The position numbers were made by a program, and so were the translations under genes. Below, piece by piece: positions 1 through 17,834 of a DNA stretch of 17,834 bases (within the stretch, counting starts at the first letter, position 1; each line of letters begins with the position of its first letter). This stretch comes from Geosiphon pyriformis uo1 (taxonomy: Eukaryota > Fungi > Glomeromycota). The DNA lies in the NCBI GenBank assembly GCA_016748015.1, contig JAAOMT010000578.1, positions 36,711 to 54,544 on the forward strand, in the 5' to 3' direction. The notes beneath the pieces are model-generated. The model was given only the letters and a program-made list of their open reading frames with translations. It searched no databases and had not been told where the DNA came from.

Positions 1-290
1 AAATAATTAAAATCATTTTTAAATATTTAATTTTTTTTAATTTACTTATTTTTCTTCTTAAGTTTTTTTAAGTATTTAAATATTTTTGTAATAAAAAATT
101 ATTTATTAGTATTTATTTGTAATTATTATTTTTAAAAATTATTTAATAAAAATTATTAAAAAATATAATTAATACCTAATATTAAAGTTTAAAAATATTA
201 ATATAAGATATAAAATTATATTAGTGTATTATTTTTTATTAATAATATAAACTATTCTTCTATTTTCAAATTTTTTTATTACTATTATTA

Positions 291-1420
291 TTTTTTTTAT
301 TCATTTAACAAGTAAAGTCCAAATATTATCTAGTATAATACATTAAATAATCAATCTAAACTAGGTGTAAATCATGTATTTTTTACATATAACCAGCCAT
401 TTAAGCTAATTAAAACAATACTAAACACCTATATAAACTAAAACTAGATTTTCAATATCTGAAAAAAATAAACAAGATTTACATAATTCAAAACTAGCAC
501 CAAATGTCTCAGCAATACCAAGCAATTTGACTATACTAGCAAAAAACATTAAAGACACCCCAAAAACTAAAATCAGAGCTAAACCATTACATAATACCAG
601 TCTATTTTTTTCCATAAAAGTACAATGCTTAGTACAGACCAACCAAATCTTATTTCTAAAAGCAAGACAAAAATTACTCACAAAGTTCACAATTTTCTAA
701 TTTGTAATCTTAGAACTTCCAAAGACAGATATAGTTTCTTAAAGCCAATTTTTAAAGACAAAACTCTTACAAAAAACTATACATACTGCAATATTCAAAA
801 CACAGAAGAACAACAATTAAGACATATATGAAAAGAACCAAAAAAGACCAGAAATTACACTCCAAGCAGTTGCATGGGCATTCAACAATTGATAATAAGC
901 AAAAACATTAATCACACAAGAAAAAACATAATCTAAAATCTCAATATTATCACAATACAAACACAATATACTAGAATAACACTTGTTATATAGGTGCTTT
1001 TGAACAGCAACTGGTAGTCAATAATGCAAAGCTTTCATAAAATATGTGTGGGCACTAGTAGTAGGCTTACTAGTAAAATTAACAGCCATGTGTGAATTAG
1101 AATACTATACCAAAGATAAGCTAAGCCAATCAATGTTTGATAATAAACTATTATCCAAAACTTTAAAACCAGAACCAACTTTTCAATGCACATAATAAAT
1201 AGACCAAAAAACTTTATAAATAAAATATCTAAAATTATTAAAAATAATACCACTCTTGGCCAACATGTAATGCTTTTTCAATTAGAAAGAAAGATACCAA
1301 GAAAAAAAAAAAACAGTGTTAGTAAAAGTGTTAGTACATATATTATCCAAAACACCCAAATAATTCTTAACTTTGTGCCAGTTAATATTTAAATTCTTCT
1401 TTTAAACAATGTTTATAATG
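291..1420 (-). mobile_element. 5'-truncated, decayed non-LTR (LINE-type) retrotransposon 3' end
   Basis: Minus-strand decayed reading frame: WHKVKNYLGVLDNICTNTFTN (RNase H C-terminal W-x-KVKGHSG-x-x-GNE-x-AD-like), ALHY*LPVAVQKHL, CLYCDNIEILDYVFSC (zf-RVT-like finger), IWLVCTKH, stop at 421, ~120 nt 3' UTR, then AATAAA/A-run at ~291-301. Confidence 0.8.
421..1420 (-). pseudogene. LINE ORF2 C-terminal part (RNase H tail + CCHC zinc finger + C-terminal domain)
   Basis: ORF-track 421..690 is the terminal piece; the same frame extends upstream through in-frame stops; finger at ~915-965 with H>Y. Confidence 0.75.
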
Positions 1421-1824
1421 TTATTATAGGTGATTATTTGGGATTTCAAAGCAAATAACAAACTCATAACTTGGTGCTTAGAAGCTATTTATGATGATAG
1501 TGTTGGTATCTGAATGTTTGATTGTTCTAAAGGTTTTGGTGTCGAGTCTTTTATATAATAGGCAGAAATTTAATAGTTGTTTTAGTAGCCTTCCAGAATT
1601 TCAATTTCGTCAAATTTTTTTCTCAGTGTAATGGTCAGTAATCTTTCTGGTAAGCTATTTTCAAATCTATGAGTGTTCTATCCTTGTTTCATAGGTCTTT
1701 TACCAGTCCTTATAATGTCTGTAATTTAGCATTTAATTTTTTAGTCAATTTAGTAAACAACAAAAAAATAACAAAAAATAAAAGAAAATAAAAGAAAAAT
1801 AAAAAAATAAGCCAAGGCAATAAA
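1420..1824 (-). mobile_element. Remnant E0: probable 5' leader and start of gag of a third LTR element
   Basis: Directly follows the E1 LTR end: TTTATTGCCTTGGC, then a T-rich run sharing TTATTTTTCTTTTATTTT with the E1 leader, then coding-like sequence with stop codons. No diagnostic domain. Confidence 0.45.
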
Positions 1825-2039
1825 TGTTAGTATTCTGTCAATAGCCATAATCAAGAGCTATTGTTCCAGTGTGGTTAAGTATTAATTACTATCAACATAA
1901 AGTGTTGATAGTGGAAAGTGGGTTTGAGATATTAAATAATTATTTATTTGTGATGTGGAGGATTGCTTAAATCCAATCTAAACTGAGAGGTTTTTTTTTA
2001 ACTAAAGAATTCTGTTTTTTCTACTTCTAGTACTACTGC

Positions 2040-2047
2040 TATATATA
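2040..2047 (-). promoter_or_regulatory. Putative TATA box of E1 LTR
   Basis: Minus-strand GTATATATAG downstream of the CCAAT box and repeat block. Confidence 0.6.
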
Positions 2048-2086
2048 CATATTTGAGATTCCTCAATTTTTCAATTCTTCACACCA

Positions 2087-2224
2087 GAAATCCTGGAATT
2101 TCTGGAATCTTGTAATTTCTTTTGGGAGGAATCTTAGAATTCTGGAATCCTGCAATTCCTTGTATGAGAATCCTGAAATTCCTGGAATCCTGCAATTCCT
2201 CTTAAAAAGAATCCTGGAATTTCA
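2087..2224. repeat. ~3.4 copies of a ~40-bp unit built from TCCTGGAAT-like 9-mers (E1 U3)
   Basis: Units start at ~2088, 2129, 2168 and 2209; consensus GAATCCTGGAATTCCTGGAATCCTGCAATTCCT. Confidence 0.9.
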
Positions 2225-2242
2225 CATTTACTATGGCTACTT

Positions 2243-2252
2243 CTGATTGGCT
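2243..2252 (-). promoter_or_regulatory. CCAAT box (NF-Y/HAP-type context)
   Basis: Minus strand AGCCAATCAG within the LTR U3. Confidence 0.6.
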
Positions 2253-2293
2253 AATTTATATGTTAATATACTTTCTATATTTTATGAATAACA

Positions 2294-2308
2294 TTATTTT
2301 CTCCTTTT
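2294..2308 (-). other. E1 polypurine tract
   Basis: Minus strand AAAAGGAGAAAATAA immediately before LTR TGTTA. Confidence 0.8.
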
Positions 2309-2927
2309 AATATTGAGCTCTGTTGAAATTTCCCAAATTTCCTAACTCTAATTCTCCATTCTTGAGTATTTCTTGAACTTTTTTTTTGAGAATTACTTGT
2401 GTTATCTTATTCTGTAATTCTTCAAATTGGGTGTTAGTTATTTTCTCCATTTGGTTAACTGTAATGAAATCCATTTCTGGATTAAGTAAAATTTCTGATC
2501 TGTCTTGAAATTCAGTCTGTAGCCAATAGATAGCTCTTGCTTGTGTTGTCAAATTGTTCTTTTCCACAAATTGTTCTAGTTGTTGCAGTATAGCTGTATT
2601 AAATAATTGTTTTGTTTTATCTATGTATAAGTTTTGAATATTCAAGTATCATCTCAAGTGGAAGTAACAAAAATTTCTTGGAAATTGTTGTATCCACTAA
2701 TCCCAAGTTTTTAGTATTTTCTGTATTTTTCTATTTTTTATCTTGTGGTTTTTTCTTGATATTTGTATATTTGATAGTCTGTTGACTGATTGTAATTTTC
2801 ATCTCTTGTTGTTAGATCAATTAGAAAAGTTGTTGTGTTAGTAAATGAATGTTTTCAGTAATATCCATTTTTTTGCTGTCTTTTTATCACATATACTGTG
2901 TCTTTATATACTCTTTTGGTTGTTCAA
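2307..2927 (-). pseudogene. E1 ORF3 (post-integrase ORF, unknown function)
   Basis: ORF-track 2307..2645 extends in frame upstream through stops; homologous to E2 10200-10676; its stop overlaps the PPT. The 5' limit is approximate. Confidence 0.7.
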
Positions 2928-2929
2928 TT

Positions 2930-4300
2930 TTATGTGTTTGGTTCAATGATTATAATTGGTTCTAAATTTTATAGAATCTCATCTGGTTTAACTAGTATTC
3001 TCTGTACTCTTAGTTGTGGAATATTACTAATAGATAATGATGCTGTATGGTAATATTGTTTTAGTTGATTACCATATGCTGCTTTGGTTAAAATTTTGTT
3101 GTTCAACCTTAATTTATAAGCTCCATTTCTAAGAATTTCTTTTAAGTAAAATTGTCTGTCCCATTTGGGGTCAAATTTTCTACTCTATTGTTTTTCTGCT
3201 TTGGTACAATGTAGAAGTACTTTGTCTTCAATCTTAAATTCAATTGGTTTCTCTGATAGTTGGTTATAATATCTTTCTTTTTGTTTTTCTTGTGACTTTT
3301 GTATATTATCAGCTGCTTTTTGCTTTTTGTTTTCTAGTGTTTCCATTAGGTCATACGTTTTTCTTAACAATATTCTTTGGAAATTTTCTTCTGTTATTGG
3401 TTTTGTTGGATATGTTTATACTTTTATCTCTACTGGTAGTATTGCTGTCCTATCATATACTAATTCAAATGGTGTTGTTTATGTAGTATCTTGCTTTATT
3501 GTCCAGTAAACAAATAATACTGATGATATGAACAAATTCCATTCATTTTGATTTTCTTGGCTGATTTTGGCAATTGCTTCACACAATGTTCTATTGAATC
3601 TTTCAACTAATCTATTGGTTTGTAGATGGTATGATGATTACAATAGTCTTTTAATTCCAAATTTTTGACTTAATTCTTTTAATATTCTATTCACAAAATG
3701 AGTTTCTTGATTTGATAATAGTTCTTTTGGATATTTGTGTTAACAGATTAAGTCTTAATAAAAGAATTTAGCAACAGATTCTGCATCTGCTCTTTGAATG
3801 GCTTTTGCTTCTGGCCATTTAGTGAGATAGTCCATGGCTACCACAATATATCTGTTGCCTCTACTGGTGATTGTTAATGGTCTGACTAAGTCAATTCCGA
3901 TATGATTGAATGGTTGTTCCACTTTAATTCATTTTAATGATTTACTGGGTCTTGTTCCTCCTTTTTTTTGACAAGTATCACAATTTTGAACATATTAGAT
4001 AATGTCTGGATACATTAATAGCCAATAATATCTTTTTCTGGTTCTTTCCATGGTTGTTTTTTTATGAAAATGTCCTGCTGTTGGATTTAAGTACATGTTG
4101 AACAGTATTGTTTCTTTTTCTGGTTCTGTAATCACTCTGGTTGGTTGGTCTAGATTTTTTTGGTTTTTTTGGTAAAGTATATTTTGATGATTGATAAAAT
4201 ATTTTGATTGCTGTTTTATGTTGTTTTGTTCTTTTTGAGATAATTTCTCCTTGAACAATTGGGTATTTATATAATGCTAAAGTTGTTGGTATTTTTGTGT
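2930..4300 (-). pseudogene. E1 integrase (HHCC, DDE core, GPY/F)
   Basis: AGHF...YYW...CDTCQ; IGIDLVRPL; VAMDYLTKWPEA; TNRLVERFNRTL; TPFELVY; KFDPKWDRQF. Confidence 0.95.
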
Positions 4301-4354
4301 GTTCATCTTTTTGTTATATTTTTTGGGTTGAAATGTTTTTAGATTTGTCTTATT

Positions 4355-4795
4355 TATGACAAACTGTCAGCATTTCTATTGTTTTTTCCCTTTTTATAAT
4401 GTACTATAAATTTATATGGTGATAGTGCTATTTTTTATCTGGTATAACAATCATTTCCAAATTCTTGCTTCTGGATTAAAGTCAACTCTTTGTGATCAGT
4501 ATATATATCAAACTTTTGGCTCAAGTATTTTTTCCATTTGGTGACAGCCCAATAGATTGCTAAATGCTCTAGTGCTGAAGTTCCATAGTTTTTTTCAGCT
4601 GAACTTAAGCTTTTACTGACATAAGCTACTGGATGTTCTCTTCCATCTGGTTCTTTCTGTAATAGTACGGCTTCTAATGTTTGGCCTGATGCATCAGTGA
4701 TGATGATGAATGGTTTGTTGTGATCTGGATACATCAACATTAGAGCTTGAATAAGCTTTTGTCTCAGTATGTCAAATGCTTTTTGTTGAGCTCCT
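4355..4795 (-). pseudogene. E1 RNase H (Ty3/gypsy type)
   Basis: IITDASG; PVAYVSKSLSSAEKNY; LEHLAIYWAV; IYTDHK; NRNADSLS. Confidence 0.95.
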
Positions 4796-4797
4796 GT

Positions 4798-5640
4798 CTA
4801 TTCATACTTGACATTTTTAGTTTGTAGATGATAAAGTGGCTGAGCCAGTTTAGAAAAGTCCTTGATAAAATGACAATAATAGCTTATAAATTCCAAAAAT
4901 GCTCTTAGTTCTGTCAGATTAGTTAGTACTGGAAAGTTCTTTACTATTGCAATCTTATCTGGATCCGTTTTTATACCATCTTTGCTTATAATATGTCCCA
5001 AAAACTTGAGTTCAGTTTTTTCAAAAAAACACTTAGTTGTATTTAGTTTCAATCTGGCTCTTCTGAGTCTTTCAAATACTTGTTGGAGATGATGCAGATG
5101 ATCATCAAATGTTTTTGAGAACACATTAGTGTTATCCAAGTATATAACTACTGATTTCCATAGTAGCCTGGTATAGACAATTTCCATAAGCCATTGAAAT
5201 ATTGCTGGAGTATTCATTAAGCCAAATAGCATTACTTCAAATTCAAAATTCTTTTTTCGTGTTGTGAAAGCCATTTTCTCTTTATCTTCTAGCTTTATGG
5301 CTACTTGCCAATAACCACTGTCTAAGTTCAATGTTGAAAACAATTTTTTTTCTCCAAAAGTGTCAAACAGCTCTTGAATCTTTGGAGTTGGGTAGCTGTC
5401 TCCTTTTGTCACTCCATTTAGTTTCTGGTAGTCTACACAAAAACGGATTTTCCCATTTTTCTTATGGACCAGTACTACTGGTGATAACCATAGGCTCATT
5501 GATGACTGAATTAGTCTATTGTCTAACATCCAATTAATTTCTTGACGAATAATCTCATGGCTGGCTGGTAGTACTCAATATGCTTTTTGTTTAATTGGCA
5601 TTGTATCTTCAGTCTTGATCTGATGCTAAATTATGTTGGT
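4798..5640 (-). pseudogene. E1 reverse transcriptase
   Basis: SPVVLVHKKNGKIRFCVDYQKLN; LDSGYWQV; MLFGLMNTPAIFQ; YLDN at 5131-5142 (YLDD decayed); FLGHII. Confidence 0.97.
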
Positions 5641-6171
5641 TCTGCCAAATTTGTTTTTACTGGCAAAGATGTCATTGAATTTGTTAAATAACATCTTTAG
5701 TTGCATCTGTTGGAATGGGTCTAAATTTCTCATGTTTATCTGTTCCAATTGTTCTAATTGGAGCAGATAACTTTTGCTTCATCTGTAAATGATTTGTAAT
5801 GTGATGTCTACATATTCACAAAGCTGTGGAAAATCTGGAATGTAGTTTGGTGGTTGATTTTCAACTTCAGTGGTTAAATATTTAATAATGGTTCCCTTTG
5901 GTATTTTGATGACCTTTCCAGTTGTGTTGTAGATAGAAATTTTAATGTTTTTGGGGCTTTTAGCTAATATGTAGAGATTAGTGAGTCCAATCTCTCCTGA
6001 TTTGCAAATGGTAGCTTCTGTTTCAAACAACTGAGCTTGATTTTTTACTTCCTTTTTTATGGCTAACATATACTGGTCATATAATGGAATGGAAATTAAT
6101 TAATGGGTTGAGATAATTTCTTCTTTGTCAACAATTTCTTCTTTTGCCATATTGATTGGTATATCTATCTT

Positions 6172-6590
6172 ACCTGTTGCTCTGAATCTCTATAATCCTT
6201 TAGCTGTGATACCTAGTTCTTTTTTTTTTCCCACTGAAACTAATTGAGCTATTTTCACCAAAAGTAAGAATATTGCCTGTGCTATCTTTTTATTTGGCTT
6301 TATAATATAGGCTTTTTCTGAATTATTTTGTAGCATGACAATGATATTTTCTATGTATTCCACATCAATTATTTCTCTTCTAATGTTGATTTTTTTTTCA
6401 CTAAACTACTCTTAGATGCTAATTGAATCATGGTTGTTGTTGAAATTTTCAGAGCTATTTTGAGATCAATATATGTGCACAAATTTGGTTCCAATTTGAT
6501 GGCTTTTTTTCCCAGATATCTCAGATCAAATCCTGTATCAGTATCATGCACACATTCTGGCATGATACCTTTATTATTGTCATTATACCA
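6172..6590 (-). pseudogene. E1 dUTPase domain
   Basis: All five motifs recognisable: TGFDL, ASKSSL (RSSL), EIIDVEY (GxIDxxY), KIAQAI, AKGL*RFRATG (RGxxGFGSTG); frameshift in an A-run near 6390. Confidence 0.9.
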
Positions 6591-6829
6591 TTTGAGTTCC
6601 TGCTCCTTAGAGAGATCAGGAAGTGCGATGTATATTCTGGAGTTTAAATTGAAGTCTGAATTATTGATATTTTTGTTGCTATATTGAGTGGAGCTAAAAC
6701 TGGTGTTTTCATTGTTGACATTGTTGGAGTTTGAATCAGAATTGAAAACTGATTCTGATTCTGATGCACAGCTGCTGATTGGTTCTTCTTCTGGAATTAT
6801 GTAGATTATGTATGATGGTAGATTGTAAA

Positions 6830-7455
6830 TGAGATCACACTCATTACAATACTGAAAGTCACAGAGAATTAAGCAATATTAACATAATTGAGTATTCAAT
6901 TGCTCTAAATGCTGCTCTTGTTCTTCCCTAGTGGATGCTAATTGCTGGTAATATTCATGAAATTCTTTTGGATCATCTTTAATATTGCCAAAGATGTCAA
7001 AAGTTTGAATGTATTCAGATTTAGAAAAAAATAGAGGGTTGTTTTTGATTTCCAGTAGTTTACTGGTTGTCACATCCTCTACTTTCACACTTGTCATTCT
7101 CCAGAGTTCATCTTCATCATGGGAATATCTTTTTAATTGTCACAATGATTGTTTCCAGGCATCATCAATTGGTGTTCTCTTGTATATCCAGTCATTAATT
7201 AGGATCATATACTGGCACATTTCATTGCATATTTCTCTGCGTCCAGAAATGTCATTCCATATTCCTTCATCAGACAAAATAGTTTCACATGTGAGACATA
7301 GTTCATTGTCCCATTTTTCTTGCTGTTTTAATTGTCCAAAGCATTCTATGTCACATGGGCAACAGTAGAATTTGGTTGTCATTTGATGTTTCTTATCATT
7401 GCCATAACATGTGCCTATTGATAACAATTTCTTGCTGCAATCAATGCATATGAGT
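6830..7455 (-). pseudogene. E1 Cys-rich domain of unknown function between PR and dUTPase
   Basis: CIDC, C, CCPC, CLTC, CNEMC and C*YC-x3-C-x4-CNEC clusters, matched in E2. Confidence 0.7.
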
Positions 7456-7819
7456 TTTGGCCGACAGTAGGTAGATTATTGTGGTATAGTGTAGGTGTAG
7501 TAATTATAAGGAGGACTGATAGGTGTTGTTTCTTTTCCCTTGTCAGTCTTTTCCCACTCCCAGTTTGCTGATTCATCTTGATTATTATCAGTTTCCTAGA
7601 CTTAGTCGGCATTCCAAGTAAGTTCTTCTTTTTCCTTTTTTTTTCTCTTATTATTGTCTTACAAAAGTATTGGTAGTAGCTCATTGTGGTTTTTGTCAGT
7701 CCAGAATACTTGATAGACTTCCCAAATAGGTTTCTTTTTATCTTTTTCGAATTTGATAAGTGAAGCTAATGGCGTGGTAATGGATTTGAAGTCACCACAC
7801 ATGGCTGGTACACATGTGT

Positions 7820-8060
7820 ATTATCTATTTCACCAATTGGAGTCTTGATGGCTCCATCAGCTGTAATTATTCTTGCACTGGCAGTTCGATCAACTCAGCA
7901 ACCTAATTGGTCCATAAGCTGTCTTGTGATGATGCTGTTAGCTGATTTACTATCTAGGATCAATTTGATAAGATGGGTATCAACTTTGGTGTCAGTATAC
8001 ATTGTGGGAATTGGTTTTTCCTTGAGTGCAGCTCCACTGAACAAGGGTGTAGATGTCAGT
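7820..8060 (-). pseudogene. E1 aspartic protease (C-terminal part deleted)
   Basis: KLILDSKSANSII (DSG>DSK, 7946-7954), IITADG, TPIGEIDN, then an abrupt jump. Confidence 0.9.
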
Positions 8061-8625
8061 TCTTCAAGTTTGAATGGGAAGATAGCTGTGAGTAACTTGT
8101 CATTGGTGACAGTTGTTGGTGAAATATTGCTGATAAGTGGCTGTTTCTGGTTGGATTCCAGGTGGTTGGATGTAGTGTCTTCTAGGGTGACTAGAAGACT
8201 TAAATAGTTCTAAGAATTCAGGTTTTGGGTGTACTTGGTGCCCGAATTCCATTGTTGCAATCCTGATGGTTGCATGGAGAAACTGAGAATTAGTTGATGA
8301 ACTACCATTAATGATTTCCAGCTTTGCTATGTTAGTTTTGGCCTTTGGGTTCTGTTTTGAGATAAGTTTTGGGCAGTATTTGGATTTGTTGGGGCTGATA
8401 AATTATCTAAGACTGTGGCTGATAAATGGGTTAGGGCTGTGGTTGATAAATGACAAGTGTTGTTGGTTGATAGATTGATGATTAATAAATTTACTGCTGT
8501 GTTATAAGTACGTAATTTGGTTGATATTATTCTGGTGATTAATTACTGACATAATTCTGAGTTTGTAGTTGGCAATTGGAGTTTCAATACTGATTAGCTG
8601 ATCTCTGGTCACTTATTTTTCTTTG

Positions 8626-9197
8626 ACATTCAAATTGTAAATGTTTTTGTTTATCACAATAATGGTATGTACACGTTCCCTGCAGCCACTGTTGATTGGT
8701 CAAGAATGATGCTGAACACAACTAATTTTGGAAGCAATTTTCATTTCTCTGATTGTTGCATTGTTGTGGGGGTTGATAAATTGCTTAATTGGTGTTAGCT
8801 AAGTACTGCTCTAATTTTTGATTAATTAATTTGCTAAATTGTTTTAATTTGGAATCCAATTCAGATGATCTGTTCATTACTAAATTTACTGCTTAAGTGT
8901 GGTTGGCTTCTAATTCAGCTGCTTCAAAGTCTCTTGCATTTGTAACTGCAGCTTGAAGATCTGTTGAATGCATTGAGCATACATACTGAAAAATGCTACT
9001 GCATAAATCTTAAATGAATTGATTTAGAATTTAGGGTGCTGTAAAATAATCAGTCTGAATTGCCTAAATTTGGTGCAGATTTCTGTGAAAGTGTCCTAAG
9101 TAAGTAGTGACTGCTTCATTTTCTCTTTGCTTAATGATGGTAAAAGTGTTTGCCAATTGGTTGATGCTATTATTATTACTGAAATATTATAGGAATG
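8626..9197 (-). pseudogene. E1 Gag (capsid-like C-terminal part + zinc knuckle)
   Basis: IKQRENEAVTTYLGHF, ILNQFI*DL, and YHYCDKQKHLQFEC at 8626-8667 (CX2CX4HX4C with first C>Y). Confidence 0.85.
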
Positions 9198-9549
9198 TCT
9201 GCTGTTACTGGAGGTTTTTGGTCTTTTTTCTTGAATGTTGTTACTGTTTATCTGTTGTTAATTTCACGTTTTCTGGAAGCAGTTGAATCTCCAATAATTA
9301 AATTTATTTTCAAATTATCTCTTATAATTTGAACTGTTGGGCTTATAAGTAAAATGGCCAATTCTGTGCCAGTTACTTTGTGTAGTTACATTGTAGTAAA
9401 CATCAACTCTTTCTTAGGCATTGCTCATCTAAAAGCTCACTAAAATTGTACTTTGCTGTGAAAGTCAACTCTTCTATAGAAATCTCATCTGTAGGCTACT
9501 CTAATAATTGTAATAAAAAAATAAAAGAAAAATAAAAGAAATGTAAAAG

Positions 9550-9560
9550 AAATAGAATTC
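9550..9560 (-). other. Candidate self-priming PBS of E1
   Basis: GAATTCTATTT is 10/11 complementary to AAACAGAATTC in the E1 LTR (2017>2007), which starts 30 nt after the TATA. Confidence 0.6.
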
Positions 9561-9808
9561 TGTTAAGAAAAACGTTTTCTATCCAGACCTGGAGTCACTA
9601 ATATTTTATTGAAATTGGTAGCTAATCAATTTCAAAACGTTAGTTGTGTTGAAAGAATTTCAAGTGTAATAATTTAAGAATTTGGTTTTTGAATATTTAA
9701 TTTTTATTTGAATGTGTAAAAGATAATTTGTTATAATTAAGATATCTAAAGTAAAATACTATGCTATGATGTAAAAAGATATATTTTCTTGAAAAGAAAA
9801 GCTTTTTT

Positions 9809-9814
9809 TTTATA
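9809..9814 (-). promoter_or_regulatory. Putative TATA box of E2 LTR
   Basis: Minus-strand GTATAAAA; the equivalent in the + copy is TATATAAAA at 17821-17829. Confidence 0.5.
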
Positions 9815-9863
9815 CAACTTGTTGTAGTACTAGTCTTTGAACTTGCACTTTTTTCTTTGCTTT

Positions 9864-9960
9864 AATTTTGGCAAACTAAAGATACATTTTGGTAAACTAC
9901 AAGTTATTTCTACAAACTATTGATTATTTTGGCGAATTTTCATCAATTTCGGCGAATTTT
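9864..9960. repeat. Five ~20-21-bp spaced TTT(T/C)GGCGAA-like motifs (E2 U3)
   Basis: Cores at 9870, 9891, 9911, 9931 and 9951; mirrored at ~17677-17772. Confidence 0.75.
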
Positions 9961-10165
9961 AACTATATTAAATGGTTCAGGATATTGTGTAATTTGATCA
10001 TCTTAATTTTTATAATACAAATTGGGTTATTAATTAAATAATAATATTTGATAATTTGATTAAATAATAAGTGATAATCGAAATAATAATAATATATGCT
10101 AATTAATAATAAGAATTATGAGGGTAATTTTATGCTAATTAATAGCTAAAATTCTACTGGTAACA

Positions 10166-10178
10166 TAATCTCCTCCTT
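10166..10178 (-). other. E2 polypurine tract
   Basis: Minus strand AAGGAGGAGATTA immediately before LTR TGTTA. Confidence 0.85.
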
Positions 10179-10199
10179 AAGACTGAACTTTATCAAAGT

Positions 10200-10676
10200 T
10201 TAAGCACTATTTGTAATGTCAAAATAGTAATCCAAGATAATTGAAATGATTTGGTCTGAAAATTGTTAAAATTTTAGTTCTGTGAGCTTTCCAATGTATT
10301 TAATCTTTATTGGGTGAAGTATTAGATTTTGTAGAACGTTTTCACAAGTATTGAATAAATCATAGAGTCTAAATGCTGCTCTAAGTTTGTAGCAAGTGTT
10401 TGTTGGTCCAGCTGCTGTCTTGAATTTATTGTGAATTTGTTTTTGTATAGCTTCAGAAGTAATGTTGATTGTTTCAAGTTCTAGTTTTCATTCATGGAGT
10501 GTTTTTCTAATATGAAAATATCTATAAATAAGAGTATGTTCATTGTTTTGTTCATTAAAAATAATAGAAGTTTTTGTTGGATTGTGGCATTTGGTAAAAT
10601 GTTAATAGGAGCAAATAAAAAGTTTTCTTTTAGTGCTTGTTTCAAAAGTTTTGGTAATTGATTTCCAGAGTAACCT
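10200..10676 (-). pseudogene. E2 ORF3 (post-integrase ORF, unknown function)
   Basis: Frame RLLWKSITK...YRYFHIRK...KLRAAFRLYDLF...IGKLTELKF...SA*, 2 internal stops; missed by the ORF track; may extend further 5'. Confidence 0.7.
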
Positions 10677-10996
10677 TTTGTTTTTTTTCTATAAGAATAA
10701 TAATTTTGAAAATTATTTACTACTGGTGTTGTGTTTTTTTTTTTAAGTGTAATTAATTTGATTTCTATTAATTATTATGAATAAATCAGGAAGTGTTTTT
10801 AAAGCTAATATTAATTTTTGAAATATTTGTTGGATATTTTAGAGAATAATCATGATAAAAGTGACTAATTAATAAAAAGAATAAAAAAAAATTATTTTTT
10901 GAATATGGAGTTTTTATTTGTTTTTGGGTTTGAATGTTTCTTGTAATTATTTACTATTTTTGTGTATTTTAAAAAGATTATTATAAAAATGTTAAA

Positions 10997-12380
10997 TTAA
11001 GTATTCAAGTTTGGTTGTTGTTTTATTATAACTATTGGTTTTAAATTTCAGAGAAAATTTTTAGGATTAATTAAAAGGAAATATGTACCAATTTGTGAAA
11101 TTAAAGGTTTAGAATTGTTTCTGAAATAATAATGTTTCAATCAATCTCCATATACAACTTTTGCTAATACTTTATTATTAAGTCTTAACTTGTATGATCT
11201 ATTGCCTAAAATTTAGTAGATATAAAATGATCTATCCTATTTATGTTTAAATTTTTCACTTTATTGTTTTTTAGCCTTAGTTCTGTGTAAAAGAATTTTA
11301 TTTCCAACTTTAAATTCATTGACAACTGGTAACAGTTTATTGTCATGCCTTTCTTTTTGTTAAGCTTGAAAGTGTTCAATATGAGTGGCTGTTATTTGTT
11401 TTTTTCCTTCCAGAATACTAAAAAGAATGTAGGCCCTTTTTTGGAGTGTTTCTTAGAAGTTTTTTTCATTGATTGGTTGTACTGAATATGTTTTCACTGT
11501 AAAATTAATTGGTAATCTTGCTGTTCTTTCATAAGTAAGATCAAATGATATGTGTTTTATAGTATCTTGTTTTAGTTTTCTGTATGTTAATAATACTAAT
11601 AGAATAAAAATATCCTATTTCTGTTCAAATCTGTTGAGACTTTGGCTAAAGATTCATATAATGTTTTGTTGAAACATTCTAAAGTCTATTTGTTTAGGGG
11701 TAATAAGGTGATAATAAAAGTCTTTTGACATTGAATTATTTACAAATTTTTTATATAAAGTTGTTTACAAAATGAGTTCCTTGATCAAATAAAAGTTCAA
11801 TTAGGCATTTATGTCTACAAATAATGTCTTCATAAATAAAATTTACTACTGATTTTGCATCTGTTCTTTAAATAACTTTAGCTTCAGACCATTTGGTGAA
11901 ATAATCTATTACAACTGCAATATAATAATTTCCTTGGGTTGTAATAGATAATAGTCTAACTAAATCAATTCCAACTCTGTTAAAAGATTGTCCAACTTTG
12001 ATTGAATTTAAAGGTTTTGTGAAGCAAATTTTTTCTCTTTTTTAACAATTATTACAAGATTTTATATATTGTCAAATGTCTTTTTACATGTAGGGTTAAA
12101 AATAATGTTCAAAAGTTCTTTGAATTGTTTCATCTCTTCCCAAGTGTGCTGATAATAGATGAGTGTACATGTTGTATAGGATTGTTTTTTTTTCATTTTC
12201 CTGTACTAATCTGAGTAATTAGTTTGAATTTCTGCAATTTTTATAATAGATTTTGTTGTGATGTATAAAATATTGTTTTGATTGATGTTGTAATCGGTTT
12301 TTTTCACTTGAAAACCAATTTTCTGGCATAGTAAAAGTCTCCAAATAGTTTTTAATGTTGTTGTAATTTCTGGGATCTAT
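10997..12380 (-). pseudogene. E2 integrase
   Basis: SAHLG...CNNC; VGIDLVRLL; VIDYFTKWSEA; FDQGTHF; C-terminal NLKPIVII. Confidence 0.93.
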
Positions 12381-12444
12381 TGTTGTTTAGTTATTATTGT
12401 TGATAAATTGATAAGTTGTGGTAAGATTGCTGTTAATGTTAATC

Positions 12445-12900
12445 TTGTTTCATTCTTAAAAGATTGTTAATATTAGTGTGTAGTTTTTCTGGTTTGTGAT
12501 GTACAATATATTTGTAGTTTGCTAGAAAGTTATTCTATTGAAACTGTTTGGTACTTTGTTCAGTTTTCTTTTTATTGAGCTATTTGAGACCAATATTGTC
12601 AGTTATAATATCAAATTTTTTTCTATTTTTCAAGTATTGTTGAAAGTGTTTAAAAGCCCAAATAACTGCAGCAACTTCTAATTCAGTTGAGTCATACTTG
12701 AATTCTGTTGGTTTGAGTGTTTTACTAACATAAACAATAATTTGTTTCTGGCTATTTTCATCTAATTGTAATAAAATAGAACCAAATACTGTGTGTGAAG
12801 CATCAATGGCTAGTTGAAACCATTTGTTGAAGTTTGAATAAACAAAAACTGGGGCTGTTGTTAATTTTGTTTTGAGAGTTTCAAAGGCTTTCTGCTGTTT
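12445..12900 (-). pseudogene. E2 RNase H
   Basis: LAIDASH; VYVSKTLKPTEFKY; ELEVAAVIWAF; IITDN. Confidence 0.92.
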
Positions 12901-13740
12901 TTTAGTTTATTAATATGGCATGTTTTTGTTGATAAAATAATTAAGGAGTTTGGCAATTTCTGAGAATTTTTTTATGAATTTTCGATAATATAAGGCTAAT
13001 TTCACAAATTTTTGTAATTCTGTAGTATTTTTGGAAGTTTGAAAGTTTTTGACAGCACTAATTGTTCTACAATTTGGTTTGACTCCATTTTTATTAACTA
13101 TGTGTTTAAAAAAAATTAAACTTGTTTTTCCAAAGTGATATTTCTCAATGTTCAATTTTAATCTTGCTTTCTATAATCATTGAAAAACTTTTTACAGATA
13201 GATAAGATGAGCTTCAAAGCTTGGTAAGTACACATTAGTGTCATCCAGATAAACAACTACTAATTGCCATAAAAGTCTTTTGTAAACAACATTTATGAGT
13301 TGCTAGAATGTTGTTGGTGTATTGCAGAGTTCAAAACATAACATTGAACTTATAGTTTTTTTTTGCATAGTAAAATGCTGTTTTGAGTCAATCTTTTGAG
13401 TCTATTTCGATTTGCCAGTATTCATTTTTTAAGTTTAAAGTTGAAAAGAACTTGGTTTTTCTTAGAGCATTTAGCATGTTATCAATTCTTGGAAAGGGAT
13501 AGGCATCTTTAATTGTTACACTGTTTAATTGATAATAGTCAACACAAAATCTGATTTTTCTATTTTTCTTTTTAACCAAAACTACTGGTGAAACCCATGG
13601 ACTTCTTGATGATTGAATCAATCTGTTATTGAACATTCTTTAAACTTCTTCTCTGATGAATTGGTGGCTGGCAGGTGGTACTTAATAAGCTTGTTGTTAT
13701 TTTGGTAGAGCATCTCTTATGTGGATTTGATGTTAGACAA
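12900..13740 (-). pseudogene. E2 reverse transcriptase
   Basis: SPWVSPVVLVKKKNRKIRFCVDY; DAYPFPRID; YWQI; intact YLDD at 13240-13251. Confidence 0.96.
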
Positions 13741-14186
13741 TATCAGTTTTTCTAAGTCATTGTTGTCTTTTGTAAATATATCTGCAAATTGAACTATTAG
13801 CTGTTTCAGTTGTCTTTGTTGTTGGGGTTTTAAAAGACTCATGTTGATTTGAGAAAGTTTTTCTTCCAAAAGATAGTAGTTTTTAATAGTAGAGATAATA
13901 TTTGGATTGAAAAGTAAGATATGTCTTACAATTTCAATGAAATTAGAGACAGTTTAAGAGTTTTCATCTTGAAAGATGTTGCTATATATGATTCTAATTT
14001 TTAATTTATTTAATAAGACAATAAAGTAATTGTTGGGATTGTAAAATATAACTCAAAATTTCTTTATTTCTTTGGGAATATAAACATTTGAGATTGAGAT
14101 TTTATGTTTTAAACAGATTTGTTGAGTAATAGTGAGTTTTGAGCAAGTGTAAATTTCGTGATGTTCTCCAAAAAGTGAAATAATAA

Positions 14187-14567
14187 TTCTCTGTTGTTAA
14201 CTAATTATAAACCCAAAATGTTGATTAAGGATAGATAAATTGCTTGGACAATCTTTTCTGCATGTTCAATCCTAAATGGTTTGTCTGTTTTATTCTGTAA
14301 CATGATGGTAATATCTTCAGTATATTCTGCATCTATAACTCCTCCTCTAATATTGATTTCTTTGCTTGCCAATAATGATTGAGAAGCAATTTGTACTATT
14401 GCTCCTGATGGTATTTTAAGAGCAATTTTGAAGTTGATTTTGGTTAAGGATTTTGGTTAGAGAACCAAAATATCTTTTTCTGAGTATTGTAGATCATATT
14501 TAACATCTATATCATGGGCTTTTTTTGGTTTTATTTTTTGTTCATTGTTGTCAAAGTATTTAAGTTG
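14187..14567 (-). pseudogene. E2 dUTPase domain (motif 5 missing)
   Basis: AHDIDVKYDL; IASQSLL; GGVIDAEY; KIVQAI. Confidence 0.88.
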
Positions 14568-14684
14568 TATAACAGACTGATTTTTAGTAAGATAGATTGG
14601 AGTTGTTGTAATTTCTTCTACTAGCTTAGATTCTTTAAACTCAATTTCTTCCTAGTCATTTTTGTTGAATAAAGAGATGCTAAG

Positions 14685-15295
14685 AGCATAGCATTCTGAA
14701 CACTATTTGTTATTACAAAACATGATGTATTCTTCATACAATTGAATATTTATTTGCTTCAATCATTGAATTTGAGCTTCTTGGGTTAGATAAGTATGGC
14801 TTGTAATCTGGTGATATGTTTTTACTTCATCTTTATAGTTAAATTTAGGTAATTCTATTGTTTATTCAATATACTTAGCTTCTTTTATTTGGCAAACATC
14901 TTTTTGTGTGGCTTTATTGATTAAAGCCATTGCTAAATTAAAGATTATTTCAGCATTATAAGGGTAATGGTAGAGTTTGTTAAAAACACTGTTGTATGTT
15001 GCAACAAAAAGTGTTTTTCTTCTCACTTTTTCCGAGATTGATAGAGCATATTGACAGGTTTGATCACATACTCCTCTTTTTATTGCAACATCAATCCAGT
15101 TGCATTCTTCTGATAACATATCTTTATATGTAAGACAAGGAGTGTTGTCCTATTTTCTATTTTGTTTGGAATATCCAAATCGTTTTTTATGGCATGCTTT
15201 ACAGTAGTAATAGGTACAAGTTTCATATTTTTTTTCTGAAGAGATACATGCTCCCATTGATAAAAGTTTCTTGCTGCAATCTTTGCATTTAAGTA
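14685..15295 (-). pseudogene. E2 Cys-rich domain of unknown function
   Basis: CKDCSKKLLSMGAC; YCKAC; PCLTY; CDQTCQY; CSEC. Confidence 0.7.
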
Positions 15296-15499
15296 GGATA
15301 TAAGATGGTTGTTTCCATAGTTCTAATGTAAAATATCTAACTATATTCTATCTTTTGGTTTCCTTAAAGAGTTTTTGTTCTGTTTTTTCAGCCCAATTGG
15401 ATGTTAATCCAAGAGCCATAAAGGTTTCAGTGATTGGTAGTTCTTTCTCTTTTTTAAATTCGAATACTGGGGCTTTTTCAGATTTTTTATTAAAAATAC

Positions 15500-15900
15500 T
15501 ACAGATAGTAGATACTTTGGTATATTGTTCTTAATACAAAATCTTCAATTTCTGGATTTCCCAATTTAAATTTGCATTGGTCTTGAGAAACCAATTATTT
15601 CCAACAAAAGCTTGGTATTGGGGTGCATTCATGACTAAAACTTTGACTGAAATGGCGATTTTATTAACTGTGAAAAGAAAGTTATCAATTTCTTTTACTG
15701 GGGTTTTCTTTATACTATCAGCTATAACAATTACTGTTTGGGCTGGTCTGTCAATATTTTGGTTGAGTTGTTGCATTAGTTGGTAGGTAATAATAATACT
15801 TTTAACTAATCTACTGTCTAGAATTAAGCAGATTTGTTTTCCTTTCACTTTAGCTTCAGTATATATAACAGTGATTGTTTTTTGCTCATTAACAGCTGCA
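15500..15900 (-). pseudogene. E2 aspartic protease
   Basis: CLILDSR (DSG>DSR, 15810-15818); AFVGNNWF (ILGxDWL-like). Confidence 0.92.
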
Positions 15901-16435
15901 TTGTTAAGCAAGAATGGTGATTCATTGACTTCAAATTCAAATAGAAATATATCTGAAAAGTTGGTATTTTGAGCAATTTGGACTAATGGAATAGTATTGT
16001 TAGAAGGGTTTAATCTTGGTGCTGCAACTTTATCTTTAGAAAGTGCAGTTTGTTAAAAATCTGATTCTTTTGGTATTGTAAGATAACTGGATTGAGTGTG
16101 GTAGTAATTGGGTCTTTACTGACCAGAATTTCGAGAAACCAACTAGTTGTTTGAGTTGATTCTGTTATTATTATTATGGAATTAATTTTGGGTTGTGAAT
16201 TGGTTTTGTTAAATCAATCTTTGGACAGGTACTTAATATTGTTGTATAAGTAACTGTTAATACTATTGAATTGGTAAAAGTTGTTGATATTGTTGCTGGG
16301 AGAAGGTTGATAGTAACTGTTTTGCTATTGGAATCTTGAGAAATAGTAGACTGGTAGTAAAGGCTGATAATGAAATTGCTATGTTGAAAAGTAACATTAA
16401 TTACTCCTGTTTTGTTGGTTTCTTTGTGGCTTTTT

Positions 16436-17470
16436 GCAGTCTTGTTTCCAATGTCCTAGAATTTCACAATAATGACAACTTTGGTTTTAACTGTTTAATA
16501 ATAATGGGTAGTTGGTTTGGTTTTGTTGTTGTGGTGGTTAATATTTTTGTGTTTATTGTTGCTGTTGTTAATAGTTTTCAACCTTTTTTGTAAGCTGATC
16601 AATTTTTTCTTCAGCTGCTGAGCTGGTTTCTTTAATAGCAAAATTCACAAGTTTGATATGGTTTGCTTCTTCTATTGCTATTTTATAGTTTTTTGCATGT
16701 CTAATAACTATTGCTAAGTCTTTTAGAGCAGGTGGGCAAACTTTTTTGATCAATTTGTCTTTTAATTCTGCTATAAACTGATCCAAAATCTGGGCATTGA
16801 AATAGTATTAATTGATTTCCAATTGTCAAATTTGTCTAAGAAGATTATTAAATCTTCCAAGATAAGTTATAACAGTTTTAGATGTTTCTTGTTTGATATT
16901 GTAAAAGTGATTTTGGAGAATGATAAAAGTGTTGTTGTTAGTGAATTGTTATAAGAAAGCATTTTTGAATGCTTGCCAATTTTTAAATAGTTCTTCTAAG
17001 TTTTCAAACCATTCTCCTATAATTTTTTGAAGAAAGTATGAAATTGCTTTAAATATTTTTGCTGTATTTTATTTATTTGCATCTTCTGCTTTCTGGACTT
17101 TGTTAAGCCATTTTTGAAAGCTGGTATCATTATTTTCACCAGTAAATTTGGAATTTTTGCAATATAAACAGTTGCCATTTTTTTTTATTTTCTGTAGTTT
17201 TTTCTTGTTCTGATTTAGTTTCTTTACTTTCTAAGTTTTTTAAATGATTACTTTTATTTTTTTGTAAATAATTAATAATATTAGTGCTGGTTAATATTGG
17301 TTTTTGCTGTTGAGTAAGACTTTTAGGTGACTGAAAATCTTCTGGTTTGAAGAAACAAATAAGTGGTGAACTTGGTGTTTATGGTTGAGCAAGTGAAATT
17401 GGAAATGGTATAATAAAAAGTAATAATTTAATGCTGGTTCCTTGTTCAGGTGTTTGCAAGTATTTGGCAG
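16436..17470 (-). pseudogene. E2 Gag (retrotransposon gag domain + intact CCHC knuckle)
   Basis: FTGEN..KWL; GEWF..WQAFKNAFL; IKQETSKTVITYLGRF; ILDQFIAEL; CHYCEILGHWKQDC at 16436-16477. Confidence 0.88.
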
Positions 17471-17834
17471 TGTTACCAATAGAATTTTAGTTATTAACTA
17501 GCATGAAATTACTCTCATAATTCCTATTATTAATTAGCATACATTATTATTAATTCGATTATTACTTATTATTTAACCAAATTATCAAATATCATTACTT
17601 AATTAATAATCAGATTTGTACTCTAGAAATTAAGATAATCAAATTACACAATACTCTGAACCATTTAACATAGTCAAAATTCGCCGAAATTAATGAAAAT
17701 TTGCCGAAATAATCAATAGTTCAGTGAAATAACTTGTAAATTTGCTGAAATATATCTTAAGTTCACCCAAATTGTAGCAAAGAGAAAAGTGCAAGTTCAA
17801 AAACTAGTACCACAACAAGTTATATAAAAGAAGA
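17471..17834 (+). repeat. E2-family LTR in opposite orientation (5' LTR or solo LTR; runs off window)
   Basis: Starts TGTTACC; co-linear with the reverse complement of 10165>9805; not preceded by a PPT; interrupts the E2 gag frame. Confidence 0.9.

Follow-up and report, generated by a model that had tools for sequence, protein, structure and literature searches.

A lineage of Ty3/gypsy retrotransposons in Geosiphon pyriformis (Fungi; Glomeromycota) carries an additional open reading frame, ORF3, between the integrase gene and the polypurine tract (PPT). It was followed up in a stretch of 17,834 nucleotides (contig JAAOMT010000578.1, positions 36,711 to 54,544; hereafter the window) that holds two decayed minus-strand elements of this type, arranged head to tail, E2 (~17470-10166) and E1 (~9490-2294). 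ORF3 lies behind the integrase, is homologous over seven lineages, is inherited together with the integrase, bears signs of purifying selection and encodes no membrane segment. It is a real third gene, and we tentatively favor the view that its helical protein binds nucleic acid and regulates the element that encodes it, without being an enzyme.

Homology, position and selection

Both window copies of ORF3 are broken. The E1 copy, a member of family F1, lies at ~2899..2307 on the minus strand; five premature stops interrupt it, some 26 codons are missing near 2713 with a consequent shift of frame, and its stop codon (2309-2307) overlaps the PPT. The first-pass annotation had given its span as 2307..2927. 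The 3' end stands, and the start is most likely near 2899, as judged from the gene models of the family, with a second methionine at 2868. The E2 copy (family F2; 10853..10146, minus strand) has 235 codons collinear with the gene model P0180, interrupted along the path read by four premature stops and by two frameshifts that compensate each other. Its frame passes through the PPT and continues 20 nt into the adjoining long terminal repeat (LTR), named LTR-B here. The ungapped block of 57 residues previously aligned by hand between the two copies was recovered with 14 identities, on the minus strand and in the sense of pol in both elements. One E2 segment within it, read earlier as TELKFNNFSDQ, is actually TELKF-stop-QFSDQ. 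The upstream match YFHLR/YFHIR is present in both copies but is partly a product of decay, because family members mostly have YFYLG and YF[HQY]IG; the conserved motif is Y-x-Y-[FY]-x-[IL]-G.

Taken by themselves, the window pieces give a weak signal: BLASTP of E1 against E2 returned no hit, and their Smith-Waterman score of 55 was equalled or exceeded by 13 of 2000 shuffles. At the family level the similarity is significant. The near-complete family member P0002 scores 108 against the E2 frame (0 of 2000 shuffles; maximum 52 over 561 decoy frames), while two other models, P0039 and P0020, fail the same shuffle test (91 and 99 of 2000, respectively). Comparison of the F1 and F2 family profiles gave a probability of 94.3 and an E-value of 1.1e-7 over 185 columns, a result that none of 50 column shuffles and none of 50 block shuffles reached.

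The E1 frame matched 129 proteins among 329 candidates (F1), and the E2 frame 122 among 145 (F2); of the 120 listed F2 models, 23 are exactly 221 residues long and 8 are 239 residues long. All named homologues are gene models of G. pyriformis. A full HMMER scan with P0002 yielded 89 hits, the distant ones including three further families, F3, F4 and F5; 17 distant matches were looked up, and 15 proved to be Geosiphon models and two to be metagenome proteins (P0293, 234 residues, and P0295, 230 residues). The seven lineages are thus the five Geosiphon families and the two metagenome ones. Their proteins are 210-240 residues long, with 17-45% identity in the core, compared with 39-59% for the reverse transcriptase (RT) and RNase H pieces of E1, E2 and the metagenome contig L001. 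This contig encodes RT-RNase H, an integrase with one internal stop and, after a 317-nt AT-rich spacer, an intact ORF3 of 230 residues in the same slot, the frame of which crosses the PPT into the LTR. Another contig, L002, opens with the tail of an integrase, and ORF3 lies further along; between the two is an additional open frame of 128-137 codons (398-811), which matches nothing in Pfam and does not resemble ORF3.

The gene caller fused ORF3 to the upstream integrase in 24 of 327 ORF3-bearing proteins, covering F1, F2 and F5, and joined it to downstream gag/protease in 12. Each of the window integrases clusters with the models that carry its own ORF3 type, which indicates that ORF3 is inherited with pol and not freely swapped. 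In a tree of 13 representatives, F2 and the two metagenome proteins are separated from F1, F3, F4 and F5 (support 100/99), and this split agrees with the mode in which ORF3 ends: the tail AQY/AQF, with a stop at the PPT, occurs in 55 models, and a LEEEIMLP-type tail, read in the other frame through the PPT, in 87. Since one and the same stretch preceding the LTR is read in two frames, the tail is dictated by a DNA signal and not by the protein. The LTRs of E1 and E2 are unrelated, as had been noted, the only common part being a T-rich leader downstream; the sequence immediately preceding the LTR is nonetheless conserved across families (2294-2320 and 10166-10189 in the window, 3092-3125 in L001).

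One role that such linkage could reflect is that of an integration-targeting adaptor, which would take the place of a chromodomain by anchoring the integration complex on chromatin or on other elements. No chromodomain is seen on these integrases, the ORF3 type travels with the integrase type, and the head-to-tail arrays of the window and the models joined to gag/protease would also fit. We nevertheless consider an adaptor improbable: adjacency and recombination would also produce linkage and arrays, no chromatin-reader fold turned up, and the gypsy targeting domains known so far are usually part of the integrase itself.

As single DNA copies were compared, codon-position identities and neutral simulations were used as substitutes for the ratio of nonsynonymous to synonymous substitution rates (dN/dS). 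Over 90 codons aligned between E1 and E2, identity is 0.39, 0.62 and 0.28 at positions 1, 2 and 3 (0.28, 0.33 and 0.32 expected by chance), in alignments that are protein-guided and so favor positions 1 and 2; 18 of the 22 identical residues use different codons. Third positions at the chance level combined with 62% identity at second positions argue for past purifying selection. Of the four pairs that involve L001 or L002, three have identities of 0.59-0.61 at position 2 against 0.42-0.44 at position 3, and the fourth, of 38 codons, has 0.68 against 0.45. Under neutral simulation at matched third-position identity, positions 2 and 3 were equal and about 17 stops accumulated; simulated scores were 33-36 and at most 63, whereas the four longer pairs actually scored 71-188. 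A comparison of two F2 subfamilies, of 23 and 8 models, places 25 fixed differences in the N-terminal half of the protein and 7 in its core; for singletons the counts are 44 and 38 (Fisher p 0.019). The fixed changes are not significantly more conservative (p 0.12). The codon-position evidence, used here in lieu of dN/dS, points to ORF3 having formerly been under purifying selection. The commonest singleton protein changes in the family copies are L>F, T>I, P>S, E>K and P>L, the pattern expected from C-to-T decay, and CpG is strongly depleted across the whole window (1-17834; observed/expected 0.11), with CA/TG in excess.

These data also bear on the simplest alternative, that ORF3 is a non-coding 3' region or a neutrally drifting captured fragment, with the likeness due to chance or AT-bias. 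The broken state of both window copies, the weak comparison between them and the origin of the gene models as automatic predictions on repeats all lean that way. Against this stand a profile match of E 1e-7 attained by 0 of 100 shuffles, the intact copy of 230 residues and the recurrent length of exactly 221 residues in 23 of 120 listed F2 models, as well as the codon-position signature and a confidently predicted fold, and we regard a neutral relic as very improbable.

Predicted fold and possible function

AlphaFold predicts a helical core with high confidence (predicted local distance difference test score, pLDDT, about 90). The predicted N-terminal part is a small alpha-beta-beta-alpha unit followed by a basic flexible linker, with 4-6 Lys/Arg per 12 residues in all nine proteins inspected; conservation and confidence are both lowest in the linker. 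The predicted core of ~125 residues comprises two helices joined by a GKTN turn, the second of them bearing the conserved Asn and Arg. The suggestion of a formerly selected accessory helical protein that is not env-like is supported by the codon-position signature, the core-biased conservation, the intact homologue in the same slot and the confident all-helical core.

An env-like or membrane fusion protein would be expected in this very slot and in sense orientation. The absence of a transmembrane segment was confirmed, since the maximum 19-residue hydropathy is 0.27-1.29 in seven of seven proteins; the proteins have only one or two Cys, none conserved, the model is that of a soluble helical protein, and viral folds were unmatched at E 0.001. 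An env function therefore seems extremely improbable. Nor does ORF3 resemble a captured enzyme: no Asp, His, Cys or Ser is conserved at six of eight lineages, and the Pfam families of GDSL esterases and DEDDy exonucleases had no match among 36 and 28 ORF3 members, respectively; the helical nature of the core also speaks against these enzymes. The Pfam, PDB and viral-fold libraries yielded nothing significant, and in a check against already described retroelement domains none matched.

Two candidate relatives were considered, both with a faint resemblance that shuffling did not bear out. Over ~95 residues, the order of helices in the predicted core is similar to that of KorB/ParB/Spo0J (PDB 1r71, 1vz0 and 6s6h), including a pair of helices joined by a Gly-Lys turn; the profile similarity, obtained against a shallow profile of seven sequences, has an hhalign E-value of 0.72 and was equalled by 27 of 40 shuffles. 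In the N-terminal domain of DUF1016 (DUF1016_N, PF17761, YhcG), the helix with Tyr-x-x-Ile-Gly and the helix with Gly-Lys ... Arg-x-[FL]-Tyr are in register with ORF3 over ~63 columns. The best score, in one of 36 members, was 15.8 bits against a Pfam cut-off of 32.8, and the profile match (hhalign E 0.12) was reached by 8 of 60 shuffles and is not significant. Unlike YhcG, the Geosiphon protein has no attached nuclease domain.

A nucleic-acid-binding regulator is suggested by the polar conservation at the turn together with the lack of catalytic residues and the faint but recurring resemblance to helix-turn-helix (HTH) folds. The ORF3 protein would be made from its own spliced or sub-genomic RNA, would enter the nucleus and use the helix-GKTN-helix element to bind DNA, the LTR being the most likely target, and might in this way promote expression of the element against host silencing. 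Two points weigh against this proposal, namely that the HTH-type resemblances (KorB/ParB and DUF1016_N) lack significance and that the intact homologues have an acidic isoelectric point (pI).

The basic linker admits a different reading, in which ORF3 encodes an RNA-binding trans factor for export, stabilization or packaging of the genomic RNA of the element, in the manner of Rev or of CERV from Cer1, the latter being a precedent (PMC10309623). A separate helical 3' ORF with 4-6 Lys/Arg in 12 residues would suit such a factor, but no RNA-binding family in Pfam matches, and the linker is precisely the portion that is least conserved and least confidently predicted; we hold this possibility to be rather unlikely. 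Somewhat more doubtful is a protein-binding counter-defense factor or particle component, blocking the small-RNA or methylation machinery without binding nucleic acid. The rapid divergence of ORF3 relative to RT/RNase H, the acidic pI of two homologues and the CpG-depleted window, which fits a silencing host, are in agreement with it; the conserved Asn, Arg, Lys and Thr at the turn between the helices are probably more typical of nucleic-acid contact.

The host elements and their neighborhood

The order of pol in the host elements is protease, RT, RNase H and integrase, with a Ty3-like RT, which places them in Ty3/gypsy; in the window, Pfam recognizes RT, RNase H and the zinc finger of the integrase, along with a dUTPase located between protease and RT. 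In E1, E2 and L001 the PPT stands immediately 5' of an LTR beginning with TG. The Pfam scan of the decayed E1 and E2 pieces gave no match to Chromo, and the L001 integrase terminates soon after the SH3-like stretch. As far as the decayed pieces allow, the elements seem to represent a lineage of dUTPase-bearing, chromodomain-less Ty3/gypsy retrotransposons.

All features listed here are on the minus strand. The broken integrase of E1 (2930..4276) has an H2C2 zinc finger (Pfam Integrase_H2C2, E 3e-7), a core, an SH3-like C-terminus and a tail recognized by likeness to L002. It is preceded by RT and RNase H in the Ty3/gypsy order (4435..5574; RVT_1, E 1.5e-26; RT_RNaseH_2, E 2e-31), the top PDB sequence matches being Ty3 RT (E 1e-48). 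Further upstream, at 5779..7700, lie dUTPase-like segments and a Cys-rich region, the former identified by weak Pfam dUTPase similarity and by a DNA match to the E2 dUTPase (14280-14431); the related model P0234 has a dUTPase at E 4e-15. The broken gag/protease (7701..9490) resembles the corresponding portions of models P0147 and P0246. In E2, the broken integrase (10997..12305; tail stop at 10999) shares 66% DNA identity with 3051-4231 of E1, and the remainder (12580..17470) includes RNase H, RT, dUTPase (14208-14456, E 3e-10), a Cys-rich region, protease and gag, with the 5' end truncated. At 5779-7700 and 13760-15500, between protease and RT, a Cys-rich region without a Pfam match is accompanied by what seem to be two tandem dUTPase-derived segments.

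E2 ends with a PPT (10166..10180) within the ORF3 frame. It is followed by an LTR-like block (10165-~9610), a putative PBS-like (primer-binding-site-like) motif read from the sequence (9588..9600), E1, and a second, unrelated LTR-like block from 2293. The first block, LTR-B (9610..10165), starts with TG after the E2 PPT and would be the 3' LTR of E2 and, by position, the 5' LTR of E1. An inverted copy of it (17471-17834; 87% identical over 362 nt, 17471-17832) cuts off the 5' end of E2, and no PPT precedes this copy. The E1 PPT is a purine run (2294..2308) abutting the TG at 2293, where the putative LTR-A (1870..2293) begins, a single copy in the window whose extent is approximate and whose far end is not fixed. 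LTR-A contains three 40-nt tandem units (2100-2219), a candidate binding site for a trans-acting factor.

Two matching direct LTRs with a target-site duplication are absent: the LTR-like blocks on either side of E1 are unrelated and the 5' end of E2 is missing, so these are truncated or recombinant copies. Over 1640-10200 the elements stand head to tail with single LTRs between them, E1 having LTR-B upstream and LTR-A downstream. The 5' leader peptide of E1 is also found after the F2 ORF3 in models P0195 and P0226, and together with the mismatched LTRs this suggests that E1 may be a recombinant between families. Beyond LTR-A there is a short gag stub and then the 3' end of a LINE-like (long interspersed nuclear element) non-LTR element (420-1320, minus strand), which matches the C-termini of P0005, P0242 and P0255, the last with RNase H.

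Comparison with other extra genes and significance

Extra genes behind pol are known from other LTR retrotransposons. In bdelloid rotifers, according to the portions of PMC5408684 consulted, such ORF3 genes occur in Ty3/gypsy-like elements, several of which have a dUTPase, and non-env types exist; they are each specific to a family and encode env, GDSL esterase, DEDDy exonuclease, coiled-coil or transmembrane proteins. Geosiphon ORF3 differs in matching none of those Pfam families, in having no conserved catalytic residues and in being kept over seven lineages. Parts of PMC2864245 describe a dUTPase between protease and RT in the fungal Ty3/gypsy element PosPlaTy3-5 and, in a figure legend, an 'additional ORF with unknown function' in fungal gypsy elements; the genomes in those parts are of asco-, basidio- and chytrid fungi, and the ORFs are likened to ORF3 here by description, not by sequence. 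Extra 3' ORFs in plant elements are likewise documented in sections of PMC7264820. Other extra ORFs share the position and orientation, occur in most copies of a family and have no clear function; some are labeled env-like from transmembrane segments, which Geosiphon ORF3 lacks. Excerpts of PMC3248453 contain no mention of dUTPase or HTH terms.

No description of the family was found in the literature searched, the supplements and the Geosiphon genome papers excepted, and the accessible part of PMC11952901 does not describe ORF3. ORF3 represents a real accessory protein family, not annotated before and belonging to a known kind of gene, with a function that we infer. Extra ORFs of LTR elements are mostly env-like, captured enzymes or confined to a single family, whereas ORF3 encodes a soluble, apparently non-enzymatic protein kept across lineages with 17-45% identity, and its confidently predicted fold matches no solved or viral structure significantly. 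The natural copy P0295 is intact, which makes the protein directly testable.

Several hundred 'hypothetical proteins' annotated in Geosiphon are copies of this transposon gene and not host genes. LTR sequences make up 41.2% of the G. pyriformis genome, as stated in a portion of PMC11952901. It is conceivable, though we think it improbable, that a Glomeromycotina gypsy lineage keeps a trans-acting, LTR-binding protein that overrides silencing, being either a distant eukaryotic descendant of the bacterial HTH of KorB/ParB/DUF1016 type or a new fold, and that this protein has aided the LTR expansion to ~41%. Given such an LTR content, a trans-acting factor encoded by the elements themselves could bear on element expansion in the Archaeosporales.
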